From contig OZ241847.1 of the NCBI GenBank assembly GCA_965202915.1, positions 2,194,242 to 2,258,241 on the forward strand: a DNA stretch of 64,000 nt, in the 5' to 3' direction. The notes under the pieces are model-generated. The model ran no database searches and was not told where the DNA came from. It was given only the letters and a program-made list of their open reading frames with translations. The DNA is from Gammaproteobacteria bacterium (GTDB taxonomy: Bacteria > Pseudomonadota > Gammaproteobacteria > Eutrophobiales > Eutrophobiaceae). Each line of letters begins with the position of its first letter. Within the stretch, counting starts at the first letter, position 1. The translations under genes and the position numbers were made by a program. This document shows, in pieces, positions 1,260-11,648 of this stretch.

Positions 1260-3146
1260 GTGAGTAGGCAATCAAATTTCAATGCCAGAAAACGCGGCAA
1301 CAGGAACCGACGCCGGCAAGCCAAATCGCAACCGGTTTCGCCAACAAGCTCAAAGCCATCAGCGACAATATCAGCAAGGGAAAGTATCCATATTACCCCG
1401 GCGCCGCACGGGCCGGAGTCACCCGTCTCCGCCGCGGCACCGGAAGCCGCCATCGCAACCGTATTCGCGCTGCCGGCACTATGCCTGTTAATCACCCTCA
1501 GTTACCTGCCCGCAACCTGGGCGGGGTTGGTGTGGGACGACGTCGTACTGACGATGGCCCAACCGTTGCAACATCTGTCCGGCCTATGGGATATCTGGTT
1601 CGCGCCCCGTTCCCTTTCCCAGTTTGAGGGACACTACTGGCCGCTTCTCTATACGTCTTTCTGGCTGGAGAATCGATTGTGGGGCGTCACCCCGGTCGGC
1701 TATCATATTGTCAACCTTGTACTACATGGCTTGGTCACAGTACTGCTATGGCGCCTGTTACTAAGGCTGGCCGTTCCCGGTGCCTGGTTTGCGGCGGCGG
1801 TGTTCGCGGTACATCCCCTGCACGTGGAGTCCGTGGCATGGATCATCGGACGCAAGGACGTGCTGGCCTCACTGTTTTATCTGGCCTGCGTGCTGAGTTA
1901 CCTGCATTTCATCGAGGCCCGGCGGCGCCGGTTTTATGCCGCGGCACTGGCACTGTTCATGGCGGGTCTGTTGTGCAAATCCATCCTGGTCACGCTGCCC
2001 GTATCGCTACTGATCTGGCACTGGTGGCAACAGGGGCGCGTGACGCCGGCCGACGTGCGCAGAGTGCTGCCGTTCCTGCTGCTGGGGCTGTGCGTCACGA
2101 TCGCCGACGTCTTGTTCTACAAGAGCAGGGATCCCACCGCCTTTGACTATTCAATCGTTGAACGGCTACTGATCGCGGCGCAGGCATTGTGGTTCTACCT
2201 GGGAAAACTGGTCTGGCCGACGCAACTGGCGGTCATTTACCCGCGCTGGGAGGTCGGCGTCGCCAACCCGCTGGCCTGGGGGTGTTTGATGGCCGCCTTC
2301 GCTGCGGTGGCGGCGCTGTGGTTCGGGCGCCACCGCATCGGTCGGGGGCCGCTGGCGGGTGCACTGTTCTTCGTGGTGACGCTGTCGCCGACGCTGGGCT
2401 TCGTGGACTATGGCTACATGCTGTACTCCTTTGTCGCCGACCGCTACCAATACTTGGCCGGGGCCGGTGTGATTGCAACACTGGCCGCAGCCGTAACCCT
2501 GGGCATGGGCAGACTGCCGGGCGCATACCGGCGCGGAGCGCAGGGCATGGCGGTGCTGCCGCTGGCCGCACTGGGCGTCATCACCTGGAACCAGGCGGGA
2601 ATCTACCGGGACAACTACACTTTTTACAGCCACGTCCTCTCTCTCAACCCGCAGGCCCGCTTCGCCCACCACAGTATCGGCCTGGAGTATCAAAAGCAGG
2701 GCCGCCACGAAGAGGCACTTGCCGCTTTTGAAACCGACTATCGTCTTGCCCCGGAGCAGCCGTCCCCACGGGTGCGCATGAGCAAGGCCCAGACCAGCAT
2801 CGGAACGTCGCTTGCGGCACTGGGCCGGATCCAGGAAGCGGAGGAGCACTTCCGGCGCGGGGTTGAGATCGCCCCGGACTTTCCGGGGGCCTACGATCAT
2901 CTGGGCGGGTTCCTGATCACGCACAAGCGTTACCGGGAGGCCCTCGAAGTTTTTCAAGCCGTCATCACCATAACGCCCGGCAATGCAAGGTTTCACGTCG
3001 GCCTGGGGGTCTCGCAGGCGGGCTTGGGACGGCTGGATGAGGCCTTGCAGAGCTACGAGCGGGCGCTGTTGATAGACCCCTTGCAGGAGCAGGCGCTAAG
3101 CAATCGCGCCAGCCTGTTGAAGTTCAGAGAGAGTGGCGGCGGATAG
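1260..3146 (+). CDS. GT-C fold glycosyltransferase, PMT_2/TMTC-like membrane domain fused to C-terminal TPR repeats (paralog A); probably a polyprenol-phosphate-sugar dependent mannosyltransferase
   Basis: 628 aa with multiple TM helices and the motifs LSYLPATWAGLVWDD and GHYWPLLYTSFWLE. The C-terminal third has TPR-like repeats (EALAAFE..., AYDHLGGFL..., EALQSYERALLIDP). About 75% identical over the membrane domain to ORF 9789..11648. Arg/Lys-rich N-terminal tail. Confidence 0.7.
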   Translation: MSRQSNFNARKRGNRNRRRQAKSQPVSPTSSKPSATISARESIHITPAPHGPESPVSAAAPEAAIATVFALPALCLLITLSYLPATWAGLVWDDVVLTMAQPLQHLSGLWDIWFAPRSLSQFEGHYWPLLYTSFWLENRLWGVTPVGYHIVNLVLHGLVTVLLWRLLLRLAVPGAWFAAAVFAVHPLHVESVAWIIGRKDVLASLFYLACVLSYLHFIEARRRRFYAAALALFMAGLLCKSILVTLPVSLLIWHWWQQGRVTPADVRRVLPFLLLGLCVTIADVLFYKSRDPTAFDYSIVERLLIAAQALWFYLGKLVWPTQLAVIYPRWEVGVANPLAWGCLMAAFAAVAALWFGRHRIGRGPLAGALFFVVTLSPTLGFVDYGYMLYSFVADRYQYLAGAGVIATLAAAVTLGMGRLPGAYRRGAQGMAVLPLAALGVITWNQAGIYRDNYTFYSHVLSLNPQARFAHHSIGLEYQKQGRHEEALAAFETDYRLAPEQPSPRVRMSKAQTSIGTSLAALGRIQEAEEHFRRGVEIAPDFPGAYDHLGGFLITHKRYREALEVFQAVITITPGNARFHVGLGVSQAGLGRLDEALQSYERALLIDPLQEQALSNRASLLKFRESGGG

Positions 3147-3391
3147 TGCTAAAGGGCTCAAGATAAATATATTCTGCGCGGCAAAGCGGGAACATCGGCC
3201 AATAACACCGAGGAAAGGCATCACACACCACAACCAGATCGTGGCCATTCACGCCGACCAAGAGCGAATGAACCGGCAGGTACTCACACCCCACCTCAAA
3301 AGACCAGTTGTCATTGAACGACATATTCAAGATTCCGATCTTACGATTCGGATGGTTTCGGTGATAATGGTGGGCAGGGGGGCAGGGTCAC

Positions 3392-3841
3392 TCATATTCT
3401 CTTTTGTGGCTTCTCCAGCATTTTTCCAAGCTGATTCAGTTTTCTGTTAAGAAGTTGCCCGTCTTTTAGCTGACATTCCCATATCCGCAATACTTTCCAT
3501 CCGTTGTTTTTAAGCGTCTTGTTTACCAGCCTGTCACGTTTCTTGTTGGCATATATTTTTTTAACCCAAAAATCTCTGTTGTTTTGGGGAACTTGGCCGT
3601 GCTTTGGGCAATCATGCCAGAAACATCCATCCATAAAGATCGCAAGCTTACTGTTTGGAAATACAATGTCTGGCTTGCCGAAAATCGGGTATCTGCGTCG
3701 CCATCCTATCACATGATTTCGCTTCAATATTTTAAGCAGTTTCCCTTCGGTTGATTTGTTTCCAGTAGAACGCACCTTACCCATAATCCATGAACGTTTT
3801 TCTTTTGAATAGACGTCAACCATTTTTCTTGACGTTGTCAA
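3392..3841 (-). CDS. vsr: Very-short-patch repair endonuclease (Vsr family); the start may be the internal MVDVY at 3823
   Basis: MVDVYSKEKRSWIM...FMDGCFWHDCPKHG...RDRLVNKTLKNNGWKVLRIWECQL matches the Vsr signature (FxDGCFWH ... GWxVLRxWE). Overlaps the upstream GHKL gene stop, so translationally coupled. Confidence 0.85.
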   Translation of the reverse strand: MTTSRKMVDVYSKEKRSWIMGKVRSTGNKSTEGKLLKILKRNHVIGWRRRYPIFGKPDIVFPNSKLAIFMDGCFWHDCPKHGQVPQNNRDFWVKKIYANKKRDRLVNKTLKNNGWKVLRIWECQLKDGQLLNRKLNQLGKMLEKPQKRI

Positions 3842-5477
3842 GCCTAAACAATAAAAATGAAATTAGACTTAGAATATCAAGGCAACTATTTTCTGGAAAT
3901 AATATATTTGATGTTGTCCTAGGTTCATGGTGCGTTGGATTTCTGAATGCTTGCACCAAACCAACTGAAAGAAATTGTTGACCCCTTTGCATGTTAAGTT
4001 CTGTGTCGTCGGAAAGGTCTGAAATTTGAAGTATTGGAAGCCTGGTTATTGTTGTTCTCCCTCTCTCGTTGTGTGATTCAAAACTAAAAGATTTATGCAT
4101 CAAATCAGTAGATGAATAATTAACACCAGCCTTATCTCTAATTTCCCTTTCATAAATCACCACTCCCTCTTTTGCAGCATCCAGATATCGGGCATTTTTA
4201 TAATCTTCGTACAGTCGATCCCTGATAAGCTGATGCAAATTTCTCCAATGATAATAAGGGTAAGAAGGTATAAGTTTTTTAAACTCGACAAACAGCCGAT
4301 TTGATTCAATAGTTTCTATTTCAGGAAAATCTTCAATCAGTTTTTCAGTAATAACCTCAATACTATTCTGAATTTCCTCCGGCATAGAATTTTTCCAGTC
4401 TTCCAGACCAATATCGCCAAGGCTGTTATCAACCTCGGCTATTTTCTTTTCTTTACGCTTTCTACGCCAATCCAATTGAACGAACTGGACACATTTCTCA
4501 AGATATGTATGAAGTTTGCTAGTTTGTAAATACCCCCAGTTTAGGTTTTGTCTGTTAGTGGAAATTACGTCCTCTGAAAAATCTTCTATAAAATCCACTT
4601 CCAACCATCCCGTCATATAAGAAAAGAAATGACTGGACGTGCTATCAGAAAATTGATAAGGAGATTGCACGAGTTTCCCCCGCGAAAACAAAGAAATACC
4701 CCTTGAATCAAATCTTGGTGCAATGGGCTTTTCAGGCGTAATGATCTTTCCCTGAATCTCAGACCGGTGCTCATAATCTGATTCTATGTTTGAAAAATCC
4801 TCGGGGAAATTCCAAGAAAATTCTTCACCAAATGCGGAGAAGTGCATATCATTGGACAACATTACCGGGTCTTCATCGTTACGCCTTACGGTAACGGAAA
4901 AATCTTCATCGAAAATAAAAAACCTTGCTATGCTGTTGGCAAGAAATTTTTCCGAAAAATCAGATTCTCTATTGATGTTTGTAAGTATTATTTGAGTTCC
5001 GGATTGACCATCTTCAACAATTTTGTCAATTACTTGCGGGATCATTAAATATTTCCCTCTCGTGGAGTTCATTAAATCATCCCAATCCATCGTAAAAATA
5101 TTTCTTTTTCCCTGTTGAACAGTGTTTACGGTAATTGTCCGAACAATCCCAAAGAATGAAAGCTTGCCCAAACCCTTTTTACCGATAACCTTCCTACCTC
5201 TCGGAGTCAACTCTTCTCCATCTTCTCTGCGGTTTCTCCCAATAACAAGAAATTTCTTGTCAATATCATTAAAAGACATTCCTGTTCCATTGTCCGTTAC
5301 AATAATTTCTTTTTCATTAATATCATTCAACTGCACTTCCACTTTTGTGGCATCTGCATCATATGCGTTGGCTAGCAGCTCACTTAAAACCGGAGGAAGA
5401 GTTGAGTACATACGAACTCCAAGGTGCTCTATAACTCTTGGGTCAAACTTCATCGTCAATTGATTAGATTCCAGCAT
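3816..5477 (-). CDS. GHKL-superfamily (HATPase_c_3 / MORC-MutL-like) ATPase protein, 553 aa, with a C-terminal domain of unknown function
   Basis: N box ELLANAYDADATKVEV, G1 box VTDNGTGMS and G2 box GKKGLGKLSFFG lie in the N-terminal 120 aa. The C-terminal roughly 400 aa match nothing I recognise. Low GC. Confidence 0.65.
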   Translation of the reverse strand: MLESNQLTMKFDPRVIEHLGVRMYSTLPPVLSELLANAYDADATKVEVQLNDINEKEIIVTDNGTGMSFNDIDKKFLVIGRNRREDGEELTPRGRKVIGKKGLGKLSFFGIVRTITVNTVQQGKRNIFTMDWDDLMNSTRGKYLMIPQVIDKIVEDGQSGTQIILTNINRESDFSEKFLANSIARFFIFDEDFSVTVRRNDEDPVMLSNDMHFSAFGEEFSWNFPEDFSNIESDYEHRSEIQGKIITPEKPIAPRFDSRGISLFSRGKLVQSPYQFSDSTSSHFFSYMTGWLEVDFIEDFSEDVISTNRQNLNWGYLQTSKLHTYLEKCVQFVQLDWRRKRKEKKIAEVDNSLGDIGLEDWKNSMPEEIQNSIEVITEKLIEDFPEIETIESNRLFVEFKKLIPSYPYYHWRNLHQLIRDRLYEDYKNARYLDAAKEGVVIYEREIRDKAGVNYSSTDLMHKSFSFESHNERGRTTITRLPILQISDLSDDTELNMQRGQQFLSVGLVQAFRNPTHHEPRTTSNILFPENSCLDILSLISFLLFRLDNVKKNG

Positions 5478-5489
5478 AATAAAACTATC

Positions 5490-6530
5490 TCAGCCCGAGT
5501 AAAAAGATTTCGCTATTCTGTAAGCAAGTTGCGGTGGCACTGCATTGCCTATTAGCTTGGCTGCGATCATTGAACTTTCACACGCAAAAACATAGTCTTC
5601 GCTGAACGTTTGTAGTGTTGCACCTTCTCTTAGGGACAATCCTCTGTTCTCCTCGGGATGGGCAAATCGACCATTTGAAATCCCGTTAAATCTCGTTGTA
5701 ATTGTTGAAGAGGGTTTATCCCACCTCAATCTCCCATAAACATCCCGAAAAGAATTATCTTTGCCTTTGTAGGTGTTCAATTGAAGCTCGGGGTCGTCTT
5801 TCCATGCGCTCCTTGTCCCGCCGTCTTTGGGTGTTAGCTTGAGCCGTCTCAAATTTTTTTCGGATAACGATGAAACTGTATCCATGAAATTATTTTCATC
5901 CTTATAACCGGATTGCAGAACGGGAAATCCATTATGGGTCCCTATAAATTCCTTCAATACGGATTCTTTCTCCGGTTGGGGAAGATCAATCGATTTTTTT
6001 ACCCTGGAAGCAATCAAGATAAATCTCTTTCTGCTTTGCGGAACTCCATAATACTTGGCATTGATAATATCCTCGACAATCTTATATTCTTTTTCAAGTT
6101 TCCGACAAAATTTGTCAAGCCCACTTTCCGCTTTGTTTCTTTTTATTCCCGGAACATTTTCTATAATTACATAACCCGGTTTGTAGTAACAGACAAAGCG
6201 CCAAAAATGATCAAGCAGTCCTCTGGTGTTCTCCGATGATCTTTTGTTCGTATTCAGGGTGGTCCAGTGCTGGCATGGGCTGCACCCTATAAAGATCAAA
6301 GAGTCGTCATTGCGTTTAATCCCACAATTTTTTTCCAGAAAAGTTCGTGGTGTGTCTTCTATATCTTTTAGAAAAAATTTTGTCCCCGGATGATTTGCCT
6401 CATATGTCTCTTTACAATCCTCATCCACATCTATCCCGGCAACAACCTTTACTCCGGCCATCTTTAACCCTTGGGACATGCCGCCGGCACCGCAAAAAAA
6501 ATCAACCGCTCTTAAGGATTTTTTTCTCAT
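5490..6530 (-). CDS. dcm: DNA (cytosine-5)-methyltransferase (Dcm family)
   Basis: Motif I DFFCGAGGMSQG, motif IV GCSPCQHWT (PCQ), motif VI ENVPG and motif X GNAVPPQLA. The ATGA overlap with the upstream gene indicates an operon. Confidence 0.9.
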   Translation of the reverse strand: MRKKSLRAVDFFCGAGGMSQGLKMAGVKVVAGIDVDEDCKETYEANHPGTKFFLKDIEDTPRTFLEKNCGIKRNDDSLIFIGCSPCQHWTTLNTNKRSSENTRGLLDHFWRFVCYYKPGYVIIENVPGIKRNKAESGLDKFCRKLEKEYKIVEDIINAKYYGVPQSRKRFILIASRVKKSIDLPQPEKESVLKEFIGTHNGFPVLQSGYKDENNFMDTVSSLSEKNLRRLKLTPKDGGTRSAWKDDPELQLNTYKGKDNSFRDVYGRLRWDKPSSTITTRFNGISNGRFAHPEENRGLSLREGATLQTFSEDYVFACESSMIAAKLIGNAVPPQLAYRIAKSFYSG

Positions 6531-8872
6531 TCGCCACCGCCCAAACTGGCTATTAATGTTACTATATGTGCCGCAACCGCGGACGAGGCAGCACGCACGA
6601 CAGAATCTTCGTCATATTCCTCCCGGCCATCGGAATTATCTTCGGAGTCACTGACAAGTCTCTTATACATTGCTAATGTGAGAATGCCCACCCCCACCCT
6701 GAAGCGGTGCCTGATGATCTCTCTCTTACCCTCATCTGATTCTTTGGAAATTAAGTACAAGAGATATTTATTGGCTTTGTTCACATATATGGTTAGCGTT
6801 TCTCCTCTGGACACATGACCGCCCGACTCTTCATTGTAGTTATGTTCATCCCAATATTCTTGCTCCACCCACTCAATATTCGGAAATTCCCGAGCCGGTC
6901 TCTCTTGATTGTTTGTGTCTGTTTCATCCCCGGGCGGGTTTCTTTGAGTTTCTTCCGCACTGGCAATTTTGATCATTACGTCAAAAGTCAGAGGATCTGT
7001 TCTTTCCGGGTTTGAGTCATCAAAGCCAAACTGAACGGCAATTTCATCTCCTACTTTTGCCCCCGCGGGAGTTATGACTTTTATTCGGAATTTTCCATTA
7101 CGCAGAGAACCCGAATGTGGCAATATATCAGGTGATGGGTGAATAAACTCCCCTCGGTTGGCATCTCTTATCAAATAATCATTTTGAGCGTCTGTTCTAC
7201 ATTCAATTCGTCTGTAAGAATTTATGGGAACACTCTTAACATTGCCCTCCTCCAAGTGCGTGGGAGTTAAATATGTGGGGAACAATTTCCCTTCATATTG
7301 ATCCTCACCTCCGGATGTTGCAATCTGACTGTCAACAATACTTCCAACATCAAATAGTTCTTGAAGATCCGGATTATCTTTAACAAGATTGGAAAGAAAT
7401 TCTTTATCGGTCTGCTCTTCTATTTGCTCGCTAATACGACGGTTTTTTATTTCTCTTGCATATTCCCTAAGTTCTCCGCTCCCGGCCAAGGCATCTATAA
7501 TAATTTTCTTTAGTTCTCTCGTGAGCCCTATGTCCGCCATTCTTTCCCTGTCCGATTTAAACACGGCGGCTCGCGCCGTATTATCCATGGCATTACAATC
7601 TATTTGAACAATTAAATGGTTTCTCAAATCATCCAGTCGCGCCTTCCGCAACAGACTGGCTCTGTCCGCAGATTGGGACTGACCGTTGATCGTGTAGAAC
7701 ATTCTGTATGGCTGTTTGCGCAAATAATCCTTCATTTTCTTCAACCCAAAATAAGATATTCGGATAGTCCCCAAATCCGAATTTTCAGAATTTTCAATTA
7801 CGTTTTCCAAGTCAACTTCGCTTTCCTCACTTCTTTCATCATCGGATTTGAGCACTATATTCATACCGGAAAAAGTTCTCGGTGCAATACCCTCCGCTCT
7901 AAGACCGCTCCTTGTGGGTTGAGCATCAAAATCATAAAGACGAACAGGCAAGGCACAATTTATAAGGTTGGTCGTAAGCGCATCATATAGTCCTATATCA
8001 ACCGCACGGGCACGAGGCCCTATATCGTATTCATATAACTTCACAATGCTGCCACCATTGATGACGACACCGATATCCTCTCTGCCAAAAGCCTTGATTT
8101 CATCGGTTTCAAAACAGGCAATTTCTCCGTCGGGACAAAAATACTCAACCACTGGCAAATCCTCTCCTTCTCGAACTCCTCTTACCCTTATCAAAGTCCA
8201 TCCCCATAGACCATCCGAACCGTAAGTGGTTCTTTTGGACAGAATAAACTTATACATCCCCGCCCTGATATCTGCTCGGGTACAAAAAGGTATGGATCCG
8301 GTGCTACCCATATTAAATCGACCTTGGACAAACGGAATGCCTTCCTTATTCTTTTCTCCAAGAGATAAAAAAGTTTTTCCAAAATCTGTATGATTTTGCC
8401 CCTCACCAAAATCAACTATCGTATAGTTTGGACAAATATCATTTCTCCTTCCTGTTCTCTTAATACCAATCAAAACACTTTTTTCAGCCAGATCAGTCCT
8501 TTGATTCGGGCTTAACAAAGCCAACCTGCCTTCTTGAACTTTGGGGAAAAAGTGTTTGACAGCCTCGCTCATATCTTGGGGAGCTGATTCACCATAAAAA
8601 TCTATTTGCTCTTCCTTTGCCCTGCGCATAAGGATTGCGTCAATGGAATTAATGATTAACTCTGCCAACGCACCGACTGGTTGGCTCGTTTGGACGCTCA
8701 CCCTGTCCCAATTTTTATCCGCGCCGCCGTAAGGCTTCCAATTTTCATCAGCGCTAAATTCAGGCTGGCTTTCCATGAACCGATTAACGTCGTCGGCTGA
8801 CAAAGCACCGAGAAACTTATTCGCTATTAACTTTGAAAGTGGGCTGTTGAAAAATTTTCTCGAATCATTCAT
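6527..8872 (-). CDS. Large (781 aa) protein with an N-terminal divergent GHKL ATPase-like domain and about 500 aa of unassigned C-terminal sequence; first gene of the island operon
   Basis: ALAELIINSIDA (N-box-like), IVDFGEGQ (G1-like DxGxG) and GRFNMGSTGS (G2-like GxFGxG). The remainder has no motifs I can assign. Its stop overlaps the dcm start. Confidence 0.5.
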   Translation of the reverse strand: MNDSRKFFNSPLSKLIANKFLGALSADDVNRFMESQPEFSADENWKPYGGADKNWDRVSVQTSQPVGALAELIINSIDAILMRRAKEEQIDFYGESAPQDMSEAVKHFFPKVQEGRLALLSPNQRTDLAEKSVLIGIKRTGRRNDICPNYTIVDFGEGQNHTDFGKTFLSLGEKNKEGIPFVQGRFNMGSTGSIPFCTRADIRAGMYKFILSKRTTYGSDGLWGWTLIRVRGVREGEDLPVVEYFCPDGEIACFETDEIKAFGREDIGVVINGGSIVKLYEYDIGPRARAVDIGLYDALTTNLINCALPVRLYDFDAQPTRSGLRAEGIAPRTFSGMNIVLKSDDERSEESEVDLENVIENSENSDLGTIRISYFGLKKMKDYLRKQPYRMFYTINGQSQSADRASLLRKARLDDLRNHLIVQIDCNAMDNTARAAVFKSDRERMADIGLTRELKKIIIDALAGSGELREYAREIKNRRISEQIEEQTDKEFLSNLVKDNPDLQELFDVGSIVDSQIATSGGEDQYEGKLFPTYLTPTHLEEGNVKSVPINSYRRIECRTDAQNDYLIRDANRGEFIHPSPDILPHSGSLRNGKFRIKVITPAGAKVGDEIAVQFGFDDSNPERTDPLTFDVMIKIASAEETQRNPPGDETDTNNQERPAREFPNIEWVEQEYWDEHNYNEESGGHVSRGETLTIYVNKANKYLLYLISKESDEGKREIIRHRFRVGVGILTLAMYKRLVSDSEDNSDGREEYDEDSVVRAASSAVAAHIVTLIASLGGGE

Positions 8873-8924
8873 TTATGAAAATTCACCTAGGTTTTGGTAT
8901 TTAATCAGTACATATCCATAACCG

Positions 8925-9560
8925 TTAAAAATCATTCCCGGAACCAAATGGCCACCCACTTGCGGAATAGGCCCGGATGTCATCATCGCCGGCATATTTG
9001 AACCAAAAAACCGCCGCCGGCACAACCGAACATTTGCCAAGCCGGCAGTTTTCCACCACCACCTTGAGCATGGCGTATTCGCCGTTGACTTGGCAGGCGA
9101 AAGCCAGCATATCGAATGCTACTTGATACGCCAAATGATGTCGAGTTTAATATATCCAGTTTGACCATTACGCATGTCGGTGATGTCGAGATCTTCACGC
9201 AGTGCTTTATCGCCATTGGTTAGGACCATTTTGTAACTGTATTTGTCGCCGCCCGCTAGAATCGCCGGACATACGGACTCCCCGAACCAAGAATGATAAC
9301 ATTAGCTCCCTCTACAATCCAGGTATTTCCCAACGCCTGTCCTTCCAGAACACCTATCGACCAAACCATCGGTTACTGACAGAACAACATCTACGGACGT
9401 GGCGACAGCGGTAATTGGGTTATCATGGAATCATCCGATTCACACCATCTCCAGAATATACGGGCGGCAGCATCGGACACTTCCTTGGGTATGTGTGCTA
9501 CCCGCACCTCCAATTAACACGGCCGAGTTGAGAATGTGAACCAAGTATTTCGTTGGTAAT
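8925..9560 (-). pseudogene. Degraded gene remnant of unknown family with multiple frameshifts, adjacent to the island
   Basis: Protein-like segments sit in three different minus-strand frames: ...VWSIGVLEGQALGNTWIVEGANVIILGSGSPYV..., ...KMVLTNGDKALREDLDITDMRNGQTGYIKLDIIW and AYQVAFDMLAFACQVNGEYAMLKVVVENCRLGKCSVVPAAVFWFKYAGDDD... They are separated by +1/-1 shifts and in-frame stops. Confidence 0.3.
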
Positions 9561-9788: not shown

Positions 9789-11648
9789 ATGGCGGCCCGA
9801 AAAAACCGAAACAAGGCCCGGCGCAGGCAAATGAAGCTGCAAACCACCGCCAGGCGCCCCGGCACGGTGCGTAGCCGGACCGGCCCCGTACCCATCAAAT
9901 CGTCGCCGGGCGGGTTGCAATCGCTTTTTTCCGGGCTCAAGCGGAGCGTACTTCACGGGGACCCGATCCCACCCGCACTCGCGGCCACGGCGCTGTGGCT
10001 GCTGATACTCATCAGTTACCTGCCCGCGACCTGGGCCGGTTTCGTGTGGGACGACTTCGCGTTCACGGAGGCCGAACAGGTACTGCGCCCATCCGGTCTT
10101 TGGGATATCTGGTTCAAGCCGCACTCGCTGCAGAATGAAGGCCATTACTGGCCGCTCCTCTATACGACCTTCTGGCTGGAGCACAAGTTGTGGGGGCTGG
10201 ACCCGACCGGTTATCATATCGTCAACCTGCTGCTGCACGGGTTGACCACGCTGTTGTTGTGGCGCCTGCTGCTGCGGCTGGCCGTGCCGGGCGCCTGGTT
10301 CGCGGCGGCGGTGTTCGCCGTGCACCCCCTGCACGTGGAGTCGGTGGCATGGGTTATCGGACGCAAGGACGTGCTGGCGGGGCTGTTCTCCGTGGCCTGC
10401 GTGCTGAGCTATCTGCGTTTCGTGGAAGCTGGTCGCCGCGCACGCTATACGCACTACTTTCGGGCACTGGCGCTGTTCGTGGCGGGACTGTTGAGCAAAT
10501 CCATTGTCGTCACCCTGCCGGTGTCGCTGTTGATCTGGCACTGGTGGAAGCAGGGTCGCGTAGCCGTGACCGACGCACTGAGGACGCTGCCGTTCCTGCT
10601 GCTGGGGCTCGGCATCACGATCATCGACTGGTGGTACTACAAGGACCGGGAAGAGATTGTCCTGGAGGACTACTCGTTGATCGAGCAGACGCTGAACGCG
10701 GCGCACGCGCTGTGGTTCTACGTTGGCAAACTGGTCTGGCCGGCGGAACTGGCAGTCATCTACCCGCGCTGGGAAATCAACGTCAGCGAGCCACTGGCCT
10801 GGGCGTATCTGGTCACCGCCGTCGCGGTGGTGTGGCTGCTGTGGTTCTACCGCGACCGCATTGGCCGGGGGCCGCTGGCGGGGGTGCTGTTCTTCGTGGT
10901 GACGCTATCACCGACCCTGGGGTTCGTCGAGTACGGTTTCATGCAGTTCTCGCTGGTCGCCGACCGCTATCAGTACCTGGCCGGGATCGGAGTGACGGCG
11001 GGCCTCGTGGCCGCCGCGGCCCGCGTTGCAGGCCGGCTGTCGGGTACGCCGGCGAGGGGCGTACAGGCCGCGGCGGTGCTGCTGCTGGTCGTGCTGGGAA
11101 CCATCAGTTGGAACCAGGCGGGCATCTACCGCGACAACTTCACGTTCTACCAGCATATCATCGCTCTCAACCCGCAGGCCAGGAACGCCTGGTACAACCT
11201 TGGCAGAGAGTATTCCATGCAGGGCCGCACGCAGGATGCGCTGGCCGCGTATCTCACCGCCGGCGAGCAGCGCCCCGACCACGTCTGGGCGCATATCGGC
11301 GCCGGGCAGATGGCCGCGGAACTGGGAAGGCTCGCCGAGGCGGAGATGTACCTGCAACGCGCGCTTGCGGTTGACCCGAGTTTCCCGGAAGCCCTCAACA
11401 ATATGGGAGCGCTGCGGCTCAGACAAAAACGCTACAGCGAGGCGCTCGAACTCTTTGAGACCCTGATTGAGATGCAGCCCGAGTACGCCAAGGTTTATTC
11501 TGGCATAGGCGTGGCCCTGGCCGGACTCAGGCGGTTTGAAGAGGCGTTGCGGAGTTTTGACCGCGCGCTTGAACTGGACCCGTCACTGGAAGAGGCGCGG
11601 GTCAACCGCGAGCACGTATTGCGGAACTCCAAAAGCGAGAGCAGGTAA
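9789..11648 (+). CDS. GT-C fold glycosyltransferase, PMT_2/TMTC-like membrane domain fused to TPR repeats (paralog B)
   Basis: 619 aa with ISYLPATWAGFVWDD, GHYWPLLYTTFWLE and HPLHVESVAWVIGRKDVLAG. The C-terminal TPR-like repeats include NAWYNLGREYSMQGRTQDALAAY and EALNNMGALRLRQKRYSEALELFE. Very high GC. Its stop overlaps the start of the next gene (TAATG). Confidence 0.7.
   Translation: MAARKNRNKARRRQMKLQTTARRPGTVRSRTGPVPIKSSPGGLQSLFSGLKRSVLHGDPIPPALAATALWLLILISYLPATWAGFVWDDFAFTEAEQVLRPSGLWDIWFKPHSLQNEGHYWPLLYTTFWLEHKLWGLDPTGYHIVNLLLHGLTTLLLWRLLLRLAVPGAWFAAAVFAVHPLHVESVAWVIGRKDVLAGLFSVACVLSYLRFVEAGRRARYTHYFRALALFVAGLLSKSIVVTLPVSLLIWHWWKQGRVAVTDALRTLPFLLLGLGITIIDWWYYKDREEIVLEDYSLIEQTLNAAHALWFYVGKLVWPAELAVIYPRWEINVSEPLAWAYLVTAVAVVWLLWFYRDRIGRGPLAGVLFFVVTLSPTLGFVEYGFMQFSLVADRYQYLAGIGVTAGLVAAAARVAGRLSGTPARGVQAAAVLLLVVLGTISWNQAGIYRDNFTFYQHIIALNPQARNAWYNLGREYSMQGRTQDALAAYLTAGEQRPDHVWAHIGAGQMAAELGRLAEAEMYLQRALAVDPSFPEALNNMGALRLRQKRYSEALELFETLIEMQPEYAKVYSGIGVALAGLRRFEEALRSFDRALELDPSLEEARVNREHVLRNSKSESR

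Follow-up and report, generated by a model that had tools for sequence, protein, structure and literature searches.

Analysis of a 64,000-nucleotide stretch of a Gammaproteobacteria bacterium genome (contig OZ241847.1, positions 2,194,242 to 2,258,241; hereafter, the window) revealed four genes in a single row on the minus strand, in the order A, Dcm, B and Vsr. Genes A and B each encode an ATPase of the GHKL type, Dcm encodes a DNA cytosine-5 methyltransferase, and Vsr encodes a very-short-patch-repair endonuclease. With moderate confidence, we interpret this row as a mobile, restriction-modification (R-M)-like defence cassette based on 5-methylcytosine (m5C), in which two parallel homodimeric ATP-gated modules would share one m5C self-mark. 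A survey of related loci provided a quantitative demonstration that modules A and B can occur apart but have been combined repeatedly, which is a new result. The recognition of A as a GHKL+S5 ATPase with an intact active site, representing a large family that has no model in the libraries searched, is also new, as is its distinctive C-terminal architecture with an Ig-like and a helical part. B is of an already described kind (paraMORC-Ymh; R.NmeAIP), and the presence of GHKL ATPases, even two of them, in Dcm/Vsr operons is a theme that was described in 2008.

The four genes are joined by a 4-nt overlap, a 12-nt gap and an 8-nt overlap. The methylase was identified by its matches to Pfam DNA_methylase (E = 5.9e-52), TIGR00675 (E = 5e-40) and PADLOC MTase_II (E = 2e-85). 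The Vsr protein, read from the ATG at 3823 (N-terminus MVDVYSKEKRS...), matched Pfam Vsr with an E value of 3.3e-16 (59.3 bits against a 27-bit cut-off), and its gene lies in the same operon as Dcm. A first-pass annotation, made from the sequence alone, had described a three-gene operon encoding two GHKL (Bergerat) ATPases. Both open reading frames are as it described, and both products are GHKL ATPases with an S5/transducer domain after each, but the operon has four genes, the last being Vsr (3392-3823), which overlaps the stop codon of the 553-aa gene.

The two GHKL ATPases of the cassette

Sequence searches tied protein A only weakly to known GHKL enzymes. The Pfam model HATPase_c_3 gave an E value of 0.11 with A itself (12.9 bits, below the 25-bit cut-off) and weak matches (E ≤ 1) in 20 of 52 family members, the best with an E value of 2.6e-4. 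Among PDB sequences, phmmer and profile hmmsearch with A found nothing relevant. When the A and B families were compared with hhalign, the probability was <10%, and either motif I or motifs II/III were aligned but never all of them together, because of an insert in A. Since the sequence-level link was so weak, structure prediction was needed. As the first-pass annotation had proposed, the N-terminal region of A was found to have the Bergerat alpha/beta sandwich fold. The structural comparison of A returned MORC3 (12.9), SMCHD1 (11.2), the MutL N-terminal domain (11.0), MORC2 (10.5), TRAP1 (10.1), Topo VI-B (9.5), MLH1 (9.1) and PMS1 (8.9), and Foldseek returned GyrB-43K.

The Bergerat motif strings quoted earlier for the two proteins are all present: ELIINSIDA (71-79), DFGEGQ (154-159) and GRFNMGSTGS (184-193) in A, and ELLANAYDA (33-41), DNGTGM (62-67) and GKKGLGKLSF (99-108) in B. 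The ordered GHKL motifs I (ExxxNxxD), II (DxGxG), III (Gly-rich ATP lid) and IV (G-T) all occur in A, as 68-ALAELIINSIDA, 152-IVDFGEGQ, 182-VQGRFNMGSTGS and 223-WGWTLIRV, respectively. In a broad alignment of the A family (52 sequences, down to 26% identity), residues E71, N75, D78, D154, G156, G158, Q159, Q183, G184, F186, M188, G189 and G192 are invariant, and G224 and T226 of motif IV are at least 90% conserved. The first-pass annotation had considered the 781-aa protein degenerate, with its motifs shifted by about 60 aa relative to those of the 553-aa protein. The shift in fact varies, from 38 aa at the N box to 92 aa at G1, owing to approximately 55 extra residues that A carries between motifs I and II. 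The motifs of A are off the textbook consensus yet invariant within its family, so A is not evolutionarily degenerate. To judge from these residues, the Glu for catalysis, the Asn for Mg binding and the Asp for adenine binding are all preserved in A, which is divergent instead. The catalytic Glu and Asn are retained in both proteins, and the pairs E71/N75 of A and E33/N37 of B are family-invariant (for B, in an alignment of 32 relatives).

The S5-fold transducer domain follows the GHKL domain directly in both proteins. In A, it carries the motif 390-RMFYTINGQ, in which N396 is at least 90% conserved and G397 and Q398 are invariant; presumably, this motif resembles FYVNGR of MutL and does not fit the MORC pattern. 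The motif of A ends in NGQ, as against xxR in MORC and NGR in MutL. In B, the corresponding stretch is G260-ISLFSRG-K268-LV, where K replaces the R of the MORC pattern GhXhhpXXRhl (Iyer 2008), and G260, L263, R266 and K268 are invariant.

A helical linker follows the ATPase module of A. In the Ig-like domain beyond it, a TDAxNDYLxR motif (T560, D561 and R569) is conserved, and an INxDN motif (N698, D700 and N701) is conserved ahead of the C-terminal helices. A role in dimerisation or as an effector is conceivable for residues ~665-781. Pfam, NCBIfam, PADLOC and PDB profile searches and structure comparison revealed no nuclease fold in A. The family has no model in Pfam, NCBIfam, PADLOC or PHROGs, and it was labelled "hypothetical protein" in every source name or annotated record examined. 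It comprises 2,354 representatives at 50% identity, 781 of them at E ≤ 1e-30, and occurs in 472 species-level genomes of bacteria and archaea; the representatives are mostly full-length (750-850 aa) among the 150 best listed.

Prokaryotic MORC and paraMORC1-5 proteins (PMC2292703) resemble those of the window in having GHKL+S5 modules with intact ATP motifs, encoded in mobile operons with cytosine methylases and Vsr. A differs from them in its lack of a Pfam model, its insert of approximately 55 aa and its unique Ig-like and helical C-terminus, and the window cassette differs from their operons in having no SF2 helicase or classical nuclease partner. A was not assignable to any named paraMORC family, although the family lists of the 2008 paper were not compared. 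The N-terminal modules of eukaryotic MORC2/3, SMCHD1 and MutL (PDB 5ix1, 5of9, 6mw7 and 7p8v) share only 10-17% sequence identity, and the eukaryotic MORC, SMCHD1 and MutL proteins have other C-terminal domains and other roles (chromatin silencing and mismatch repair).

Protein B was recognized readily by existing models, with matches to HATPase_c_3 (E = 1.8e-22) and to Hypoth_Ymh/TIGR02391 (E = 5e-19) that are both far over the curated cut-offs, and its AlphaFold model has a pLDDT of 79.9. The GHKL invariants of B are E33, N37 and D40; D62, G64 and G66; the G99-K-K-G-x-G-K105 lid; and G160 and T161. The HEPN domain, a predicted RNase, has an invariant R512 and an at least 90% conserved H517 in its Rx4H motif. 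Contrary to the earlier suggestion, the operon is not short of effectors: B ends in this HEPN domain, and the fourth gene encodes the Vsr nuclease. Public gene calls start B (protein P0121) 22 codons further downstream, which gives a protein of 531 aa and skips the stretch 5412-5477. The start giving 553 aa is considered right because F11 and I16-G20 are invariant across the family and the profile matches start at residues 5-8.

A protein with GHKL and Hypoth_Ymh domains was listed as the putative restriction endonuclease R.NmeAIP by Orlowski & Bujnicki (PMC2441816). Anantharaman et al. showed that Ymh is a HEPN family, found it fused to paraMORCs near R-M genes, and suggested that it acts in the manner of PrrC/RloC (PMC3710099). 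In Neisseria meningitidis, R.NmeAIP adjoins M.NmeAI (C5mCGG) (PMC2441816; PMC3710099; PMC4676702). B is built alike, with GHKL at the N-terminus, S5 in the middle and, at the C-terminus, a Hypoth_Ymh domain with conserved Rx4H, and it has the same kind of partner, an upstream Dcm-type methylase that is often accompanied by Vsr. Unlike the R.NmeAIP type, the window cassette has a second, unrelated GHKL gene (A) upstream of the shared methylase, which is rare (1 of 42 loci). In the literature on Ymh/TIGR02391 and paraMORC, no experimental work on the GHKL-HEPN type was found.

The first ~380 residues of B, comprising its GHKL and middle domains, also align to positions 2-397 of the 659 positions of the BbrUII/HgiDII restriction-enzyme model (NF050001; GTCGAC), with an E value of 3.6e-66, so B has the ATPase module of that family. 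However, B is not a member of that group because its score is below the cut-off (224 against 550 bits) and its C-terminus is different, the C-terminal ~260 residues of HgiDII being replaced by HEPN in B. Two defence-associated PADLOC models of Ymh-like HEPN domains, PD-Lambda-3 subunit B (E = 3e-10) and Argonaute-associated HEPN (E = 5e-10), match the C-terminal domain of B; these matches are limited to the HEPN part, and neither system has a GHKL protein or a Dcm.

The closest experimental precedent is VcSduA of Vibrio cholerae (paraMORC3/Shedu type I-D), which, like B, has an N-terminal GHKL ATPase and a C-terminal effector in one polypeptide. Both the GHKL Glu and the nuclease of VcSduA are needed for phage defence, and the published model of the protein is an entwined homodimer whose middle domain is clamp-like (PMC12137116). 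Its effector is a DUF4263 PD-(D/E)xK DNase and it has no methylase, whereas B has HEPN and A has no recognisable nuclease. No DUF4263 (Pfam) or Shedu (PADLOC) match was found in A or B.

Separability and recurrence of the A and B modules

The gene context of the two proteins was surveyed at 80 loci around A relatives and 86 around B relatives. In the B-centred set, 65 of the 72 loci with sufficient sequence have Dcm immediately upstream of B in the same orientation, and 33 of 86 have Vsr. An A relative was found at only one (L157) of the 42 loci with at least 3.6 kb of upstream sequence; the other 41 lack A. Some Dcm-B pairs stand alone between housekeeping genes, as at L084.

In the A-centred set, Dcm was found within the flanks searched in 34 of 80 loci, mostly adjoining A, and it adjoins A in nearly all of the close relatives (>40% identity). 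Vsr occurs in 20 of the 80, all of them among the 34 A-Dcm loci. Only 13 of 80 contain B, and A-Dcm without B is the arrangement in most. Locus L005 is a 72%-identical copy of the window cassette from which B is cleanly missing, and in the A tree the B-lacking loci L005, L017, L018 and L022 nest among loci that contain B. These statistics indicate that each GHKL protein is a self-sufficient methylase partner and that the window cassette joins both around one Dcm.

Distant A relatives (~30% identity) adjoin N6/N4 or other methyltransferases and an unknown 350-aa gene. They are also found near DndB/DGQHR, GmrSD, HsdR, PIN-MazE, SIR2 and DUF262 genes, and these neighbourhoods are defence islands. 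The conserved gene of approximately 350 aa, termed "c4", is adjacent to or overlaps the start of A in seven distant loci (L040, L042, L045, L047, L052, L069 and L077); neither Pfam nor NCBIfam gave a match to it. A-family proteins may have its product as an alternative partner, possibly a methylase or a nuclease. A PIN-domain toxin gene lies directly upstream of A relatives in L026, L060 and L068, and also in L054 and L059; in the first three, a MazE-like antitoxin gene stands beside the PIN gene.

Proposed mechanism and competing explanations

In the cassette as we propose it, Dcm would mark the host (self) DNA, and Vsr would repair the T:G mismatches left by deamination of 5-methylcytosine. 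B would most likely be an ATP-gated homodimeric clamp that, after engaging DNA without the Dcm mark, turns on its HEPN RNase, with abortive infection or growth arrest as the outcome. A would most likely be an independent second homodimeric clamp keyed to the same methylation mark, because A also forms self-sufficient A-Dcm cassettes. The two proteins would be two separable "restriction-like" arms on one methylase, not two halves of an obligate heterodimer. Domain identities, motif conservation, gene order and the separability and recurrence of the modules are direct observations; homodimerisation, recognition of unmethylated DNA, the RNase activity of HEPN and the role in defence are inferred.

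Several observations weigh against this interpretation. Joint occurrence of A and B is far above chance, with B at 13 of 80 A loci from two A subclades; in the B tree, the A-linked proteins form two separate basal clades; and pairwise divergence of A and B is correlated (r = 0.88; for A and Dcm, r = 0.975). Some functional coupling beyond the shared methylase is therefore plausible. In two loci of Planctomycete metagenome-assembled genomes (MAGs) (L035:6090-7835 and L064:6226-7878), another GHKL gene lies directly upstream of a distant A relative. It encodes a canonical HATPase_c_3 protein of 550-581 aa that is not B-like and has no HEPN, and neither locus has a Dcm. This arrangement, a second and independent case of tandem GHKL genes, hints at a possible preference of A-type proteins for another GHKL partner. 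A recognisable adjacent methyltransferase was found in only ~40% of A-family loci. Because no nuclease fold was found in A, its "restriction-like" role is drawn from gene context only. Finally, both the HEPN RNase activity and the sensing of methylation are inferences.

An unlikely alternative is that A and B together form, obligately or facultatively, a heterodimeric ATP-gated DNA clamp like eukaryotic MutL-alpha, with the heads dimerising across subunits and with HEPN and/or Vsr as the output. Such a pairing would suit two GHKL+S5 proteins that have the same structural neighbours and are encoded in one tightly packed operon, and the A-Dcm-B order recurs in 14 loci from two A subclades, with the A-linked B proteins in clades of their own. 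Operons with two different GHKLs (MORC and paraMORC1) were also reported earlier in R-M systems, and DNA looping or clamping was proposed for them (Iyer, Abhiman & Aravind 2008; PMC2292703). The pairing of a distant A relative with another GHKL in L035 and L064 points the same way. The co-occurrence data, however, argue against an obligate A-B heteromer: B occurs without A in nearly all informative loci (41 of 42) and A without B in most, including near-identical cassettes, and the B-lacking loci L005 and L017 are nested in the A tree. The first-pass annotation had pictured a competent subunit paired with a degenerate one, as in MutL-alpha, but both ATPase sites are fully conserved in their families and no such asymmetry exists. 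MORC, MutL-NTD, SMCHD1 and Shedu-type GHKL modules, as solved, are homodimers, which also counts against a heterodimer. The insert between motifs I and II of A and the lack of significant profile-profile similarity between A and B (probability <10%) are further points against it. Obligate heterodimers of the MutL-alpha type have a C-terminal dimerisation domain that is homologous in both subunits. A and B end in unrelated halves, Ig-like and helical in A and HEPN in B; therefore, the two share no MutL-like C-terminal dimerisation domain.

It is quite improbable that the cassette works by a guard mechanism, in which A and Dcm would form the primary, DNA-targeting restriction arm and B would monitor the system as a latent HEPN "suicide" nuclease, to be released once a phage puts the system out of action, like PrrC with EcoprrI. 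The position of B downstream of A-Dcm in the window cassette and its conserved Rx4H motif are compatible with this idea, and the HEPN survey explicitly likened paraMORC-Ymh proteins of R-M neighbourhoods to PrrC/RloC (PMC3710099). Nevertheless, B sits with Dcm alone in the great majority of loci, where there is no other restriction component to guard, and A has no recognisable nuclease.

We consider it very unlikely that the A family consists of new nuclease-free prokaryotic MORC/SMCHD1-like clamps, which would silence unmethylated DNA by ATP-driven entrapment or compaction and, in cassettes of this kind, cooperate with the HEPN-armed paraMORC, possibly in a mixed complex. If this were true, GHKL clamps and one methylase alone would provide a two-tier "silence, then suicide" immunity, a bacterial equivalent of the MORC-based epigenetic silencing of eukaryotes and perhaps its ancestor.

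The least probable explanation is a methylation-plus-repair unit without a defence role, in which one or both GHKL proteins would be MutL-like factors that load or stimulate Vsr at T:G mismatches. MutL does work with Vsr in very-short-patch repair (PMC2292703), Vsr accompanies many of the cassettes (20 of 34 A-Dcm loci and 33 of 86 B loci), and A and B both structurally resemble the MutL N-terminal domain; but mismatch repair offers no role for a toxin-type HEPN domain, Vsr is absent from many A-Dcm and Dcm-B cassettes, A relatives occur with N6/N4 adenine-type methyltransferases and in defence islands, where Vsr repair is irrelevant, and the mobility and low GC of the cassette fit a selfish or defence element. 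A role of A as a Type IV (methyl-dependent) enzyme was rejected; A is consistently linked to a methylase in the same operon.

Transfer of the cassette and its significance

The defence-cassette interpretation includes mobility, and the composition of the DNA agrees with transfer: the GC content is 0.39-0.48 across the block from 3.3 to 9.3 kb and 0.50-0.65 in its flanks (Table 1). BlastN analysis against the loci L002-L010 demonstrated that the cassette DNA is 72-74% identical in MAGs of other phyla or classes. These MAGs are assigned to Arenicellales, Nitrospirales, Thermodesulfobacteriota, Ca. Spongiihabitans, Ca. Poriferihabitaceae and Ca. Azophilus. Sponge-associated candidate taxa are among these names, which, as far as names can tell, may reflect recent exchange in a shared, possibly sponge-symbiont community. 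Similar DNA was not found in E. coli genomes.

A decayed hemB remnant marks the upstream edge of the block. The remnant is 44% identical at the amino acid level to the intact hemB upstream of A in L002, and an intact hemB occupies its position in the related cassettes L002 and L009. DNA similarity to these two loci begins inside the remnant and spans 9259 to ~3264. The cassette thus seems to have been transferred together with a piece of the donor's hemB. In a comparison with loci L082, L086 and L012-L027, the Dcm of the window is ~49% identical to the Dcm of B-only cassettes but only 32-38% identical to that of A-only cassettes. This difference hints that Dcm and B may have moved as a unit and been joined to A more than once.

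Table 1. Coordinates in the window of the cassette genes, their domains and the surrounding block.
Feature	Coordinates	Strand	Description
Gene A	6527..8872	-	781 aa; divergent MORC/MutL-like GHKL+S5 ATPase, Ig-like beta-sandwich, C-terminal helical domain; unannotated family
A residues ~60-445	7538..8695	-	GHKL (Bergerat) + S5/transducer-like domain
A residues ~530-640	6953..7285	-	All-beta (Ig-like sandwich) domain
A residues ~665-781	6530..6880	-	Small beta unit + long helices
Dcm-type DNA cytosine-5 methyltransferase	5490..6530	-	346 aa; start overlaps A stop codon by 4 nt
Gene B	3816..5477	-	553 aa; paraMORC-type GHKL+S5 ATPase fused to Ymh-family HEPN domain (REBASE "R.NmeAIP" architecture)
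B residues 28-159	5001..5396	-	GHKL domain; Pfam HATPase_c_3, 80.3 bits against a cut-off of 25
B residues 412-545	3843..4244	-	HEPN (Hypoth_Ymh/TIGR02391) domain; Rx4H motif R512-N-P-T-H-H517
Vsr very-short-patch-repair endonuclease	3392..3823	-	~143 aa from ATG at 3823; overlaps B stop by 8 nt
hemB (ALAD) remnant	8925..9259	-	Decayed 3' remnant; Pfam ALAD, E = 1.4e-4; upstream edge of transferred block
Low-GC horizontally transferred block	3261..9259		Composition and blastn against L002-L010

The island is flanked by paralogous genes for TPR-repeat proteins on the plus strand (1260-3146 and 9789-11648), one of which also has a PMT_2-like glycosyltransferase region. In the flanks, no bounding direct repeats or attachment sites were found, only short repeats at chance level, and no integrase was seen. 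Promoter-like and terminator-like sites were not enriched over shuffled sequences.

In 2008, the GHKL/MORC-type ATPases found in R-M operons of bacteria were predicted to be ancestral to the MORC silencers of eukaryotes. Apart from the Shedu-type paraMORC3, almost none of these bacterial ATPases has been studied. The present cassette is a convenient study system because it is only ~6 kb long and evidently mobile, combines two ATPases with a methylase and a repair nuclease, and has natural variants that lack either arm. The analysis corrects the idea that the A-B pair must be a MutL-alpha-like heterodimer, and the cassette is suited to asking how a GHKL clamp reads DNA methylation, what a HEPN domain does when it is coupled to such a clamp, and what role the unannotated A family has.

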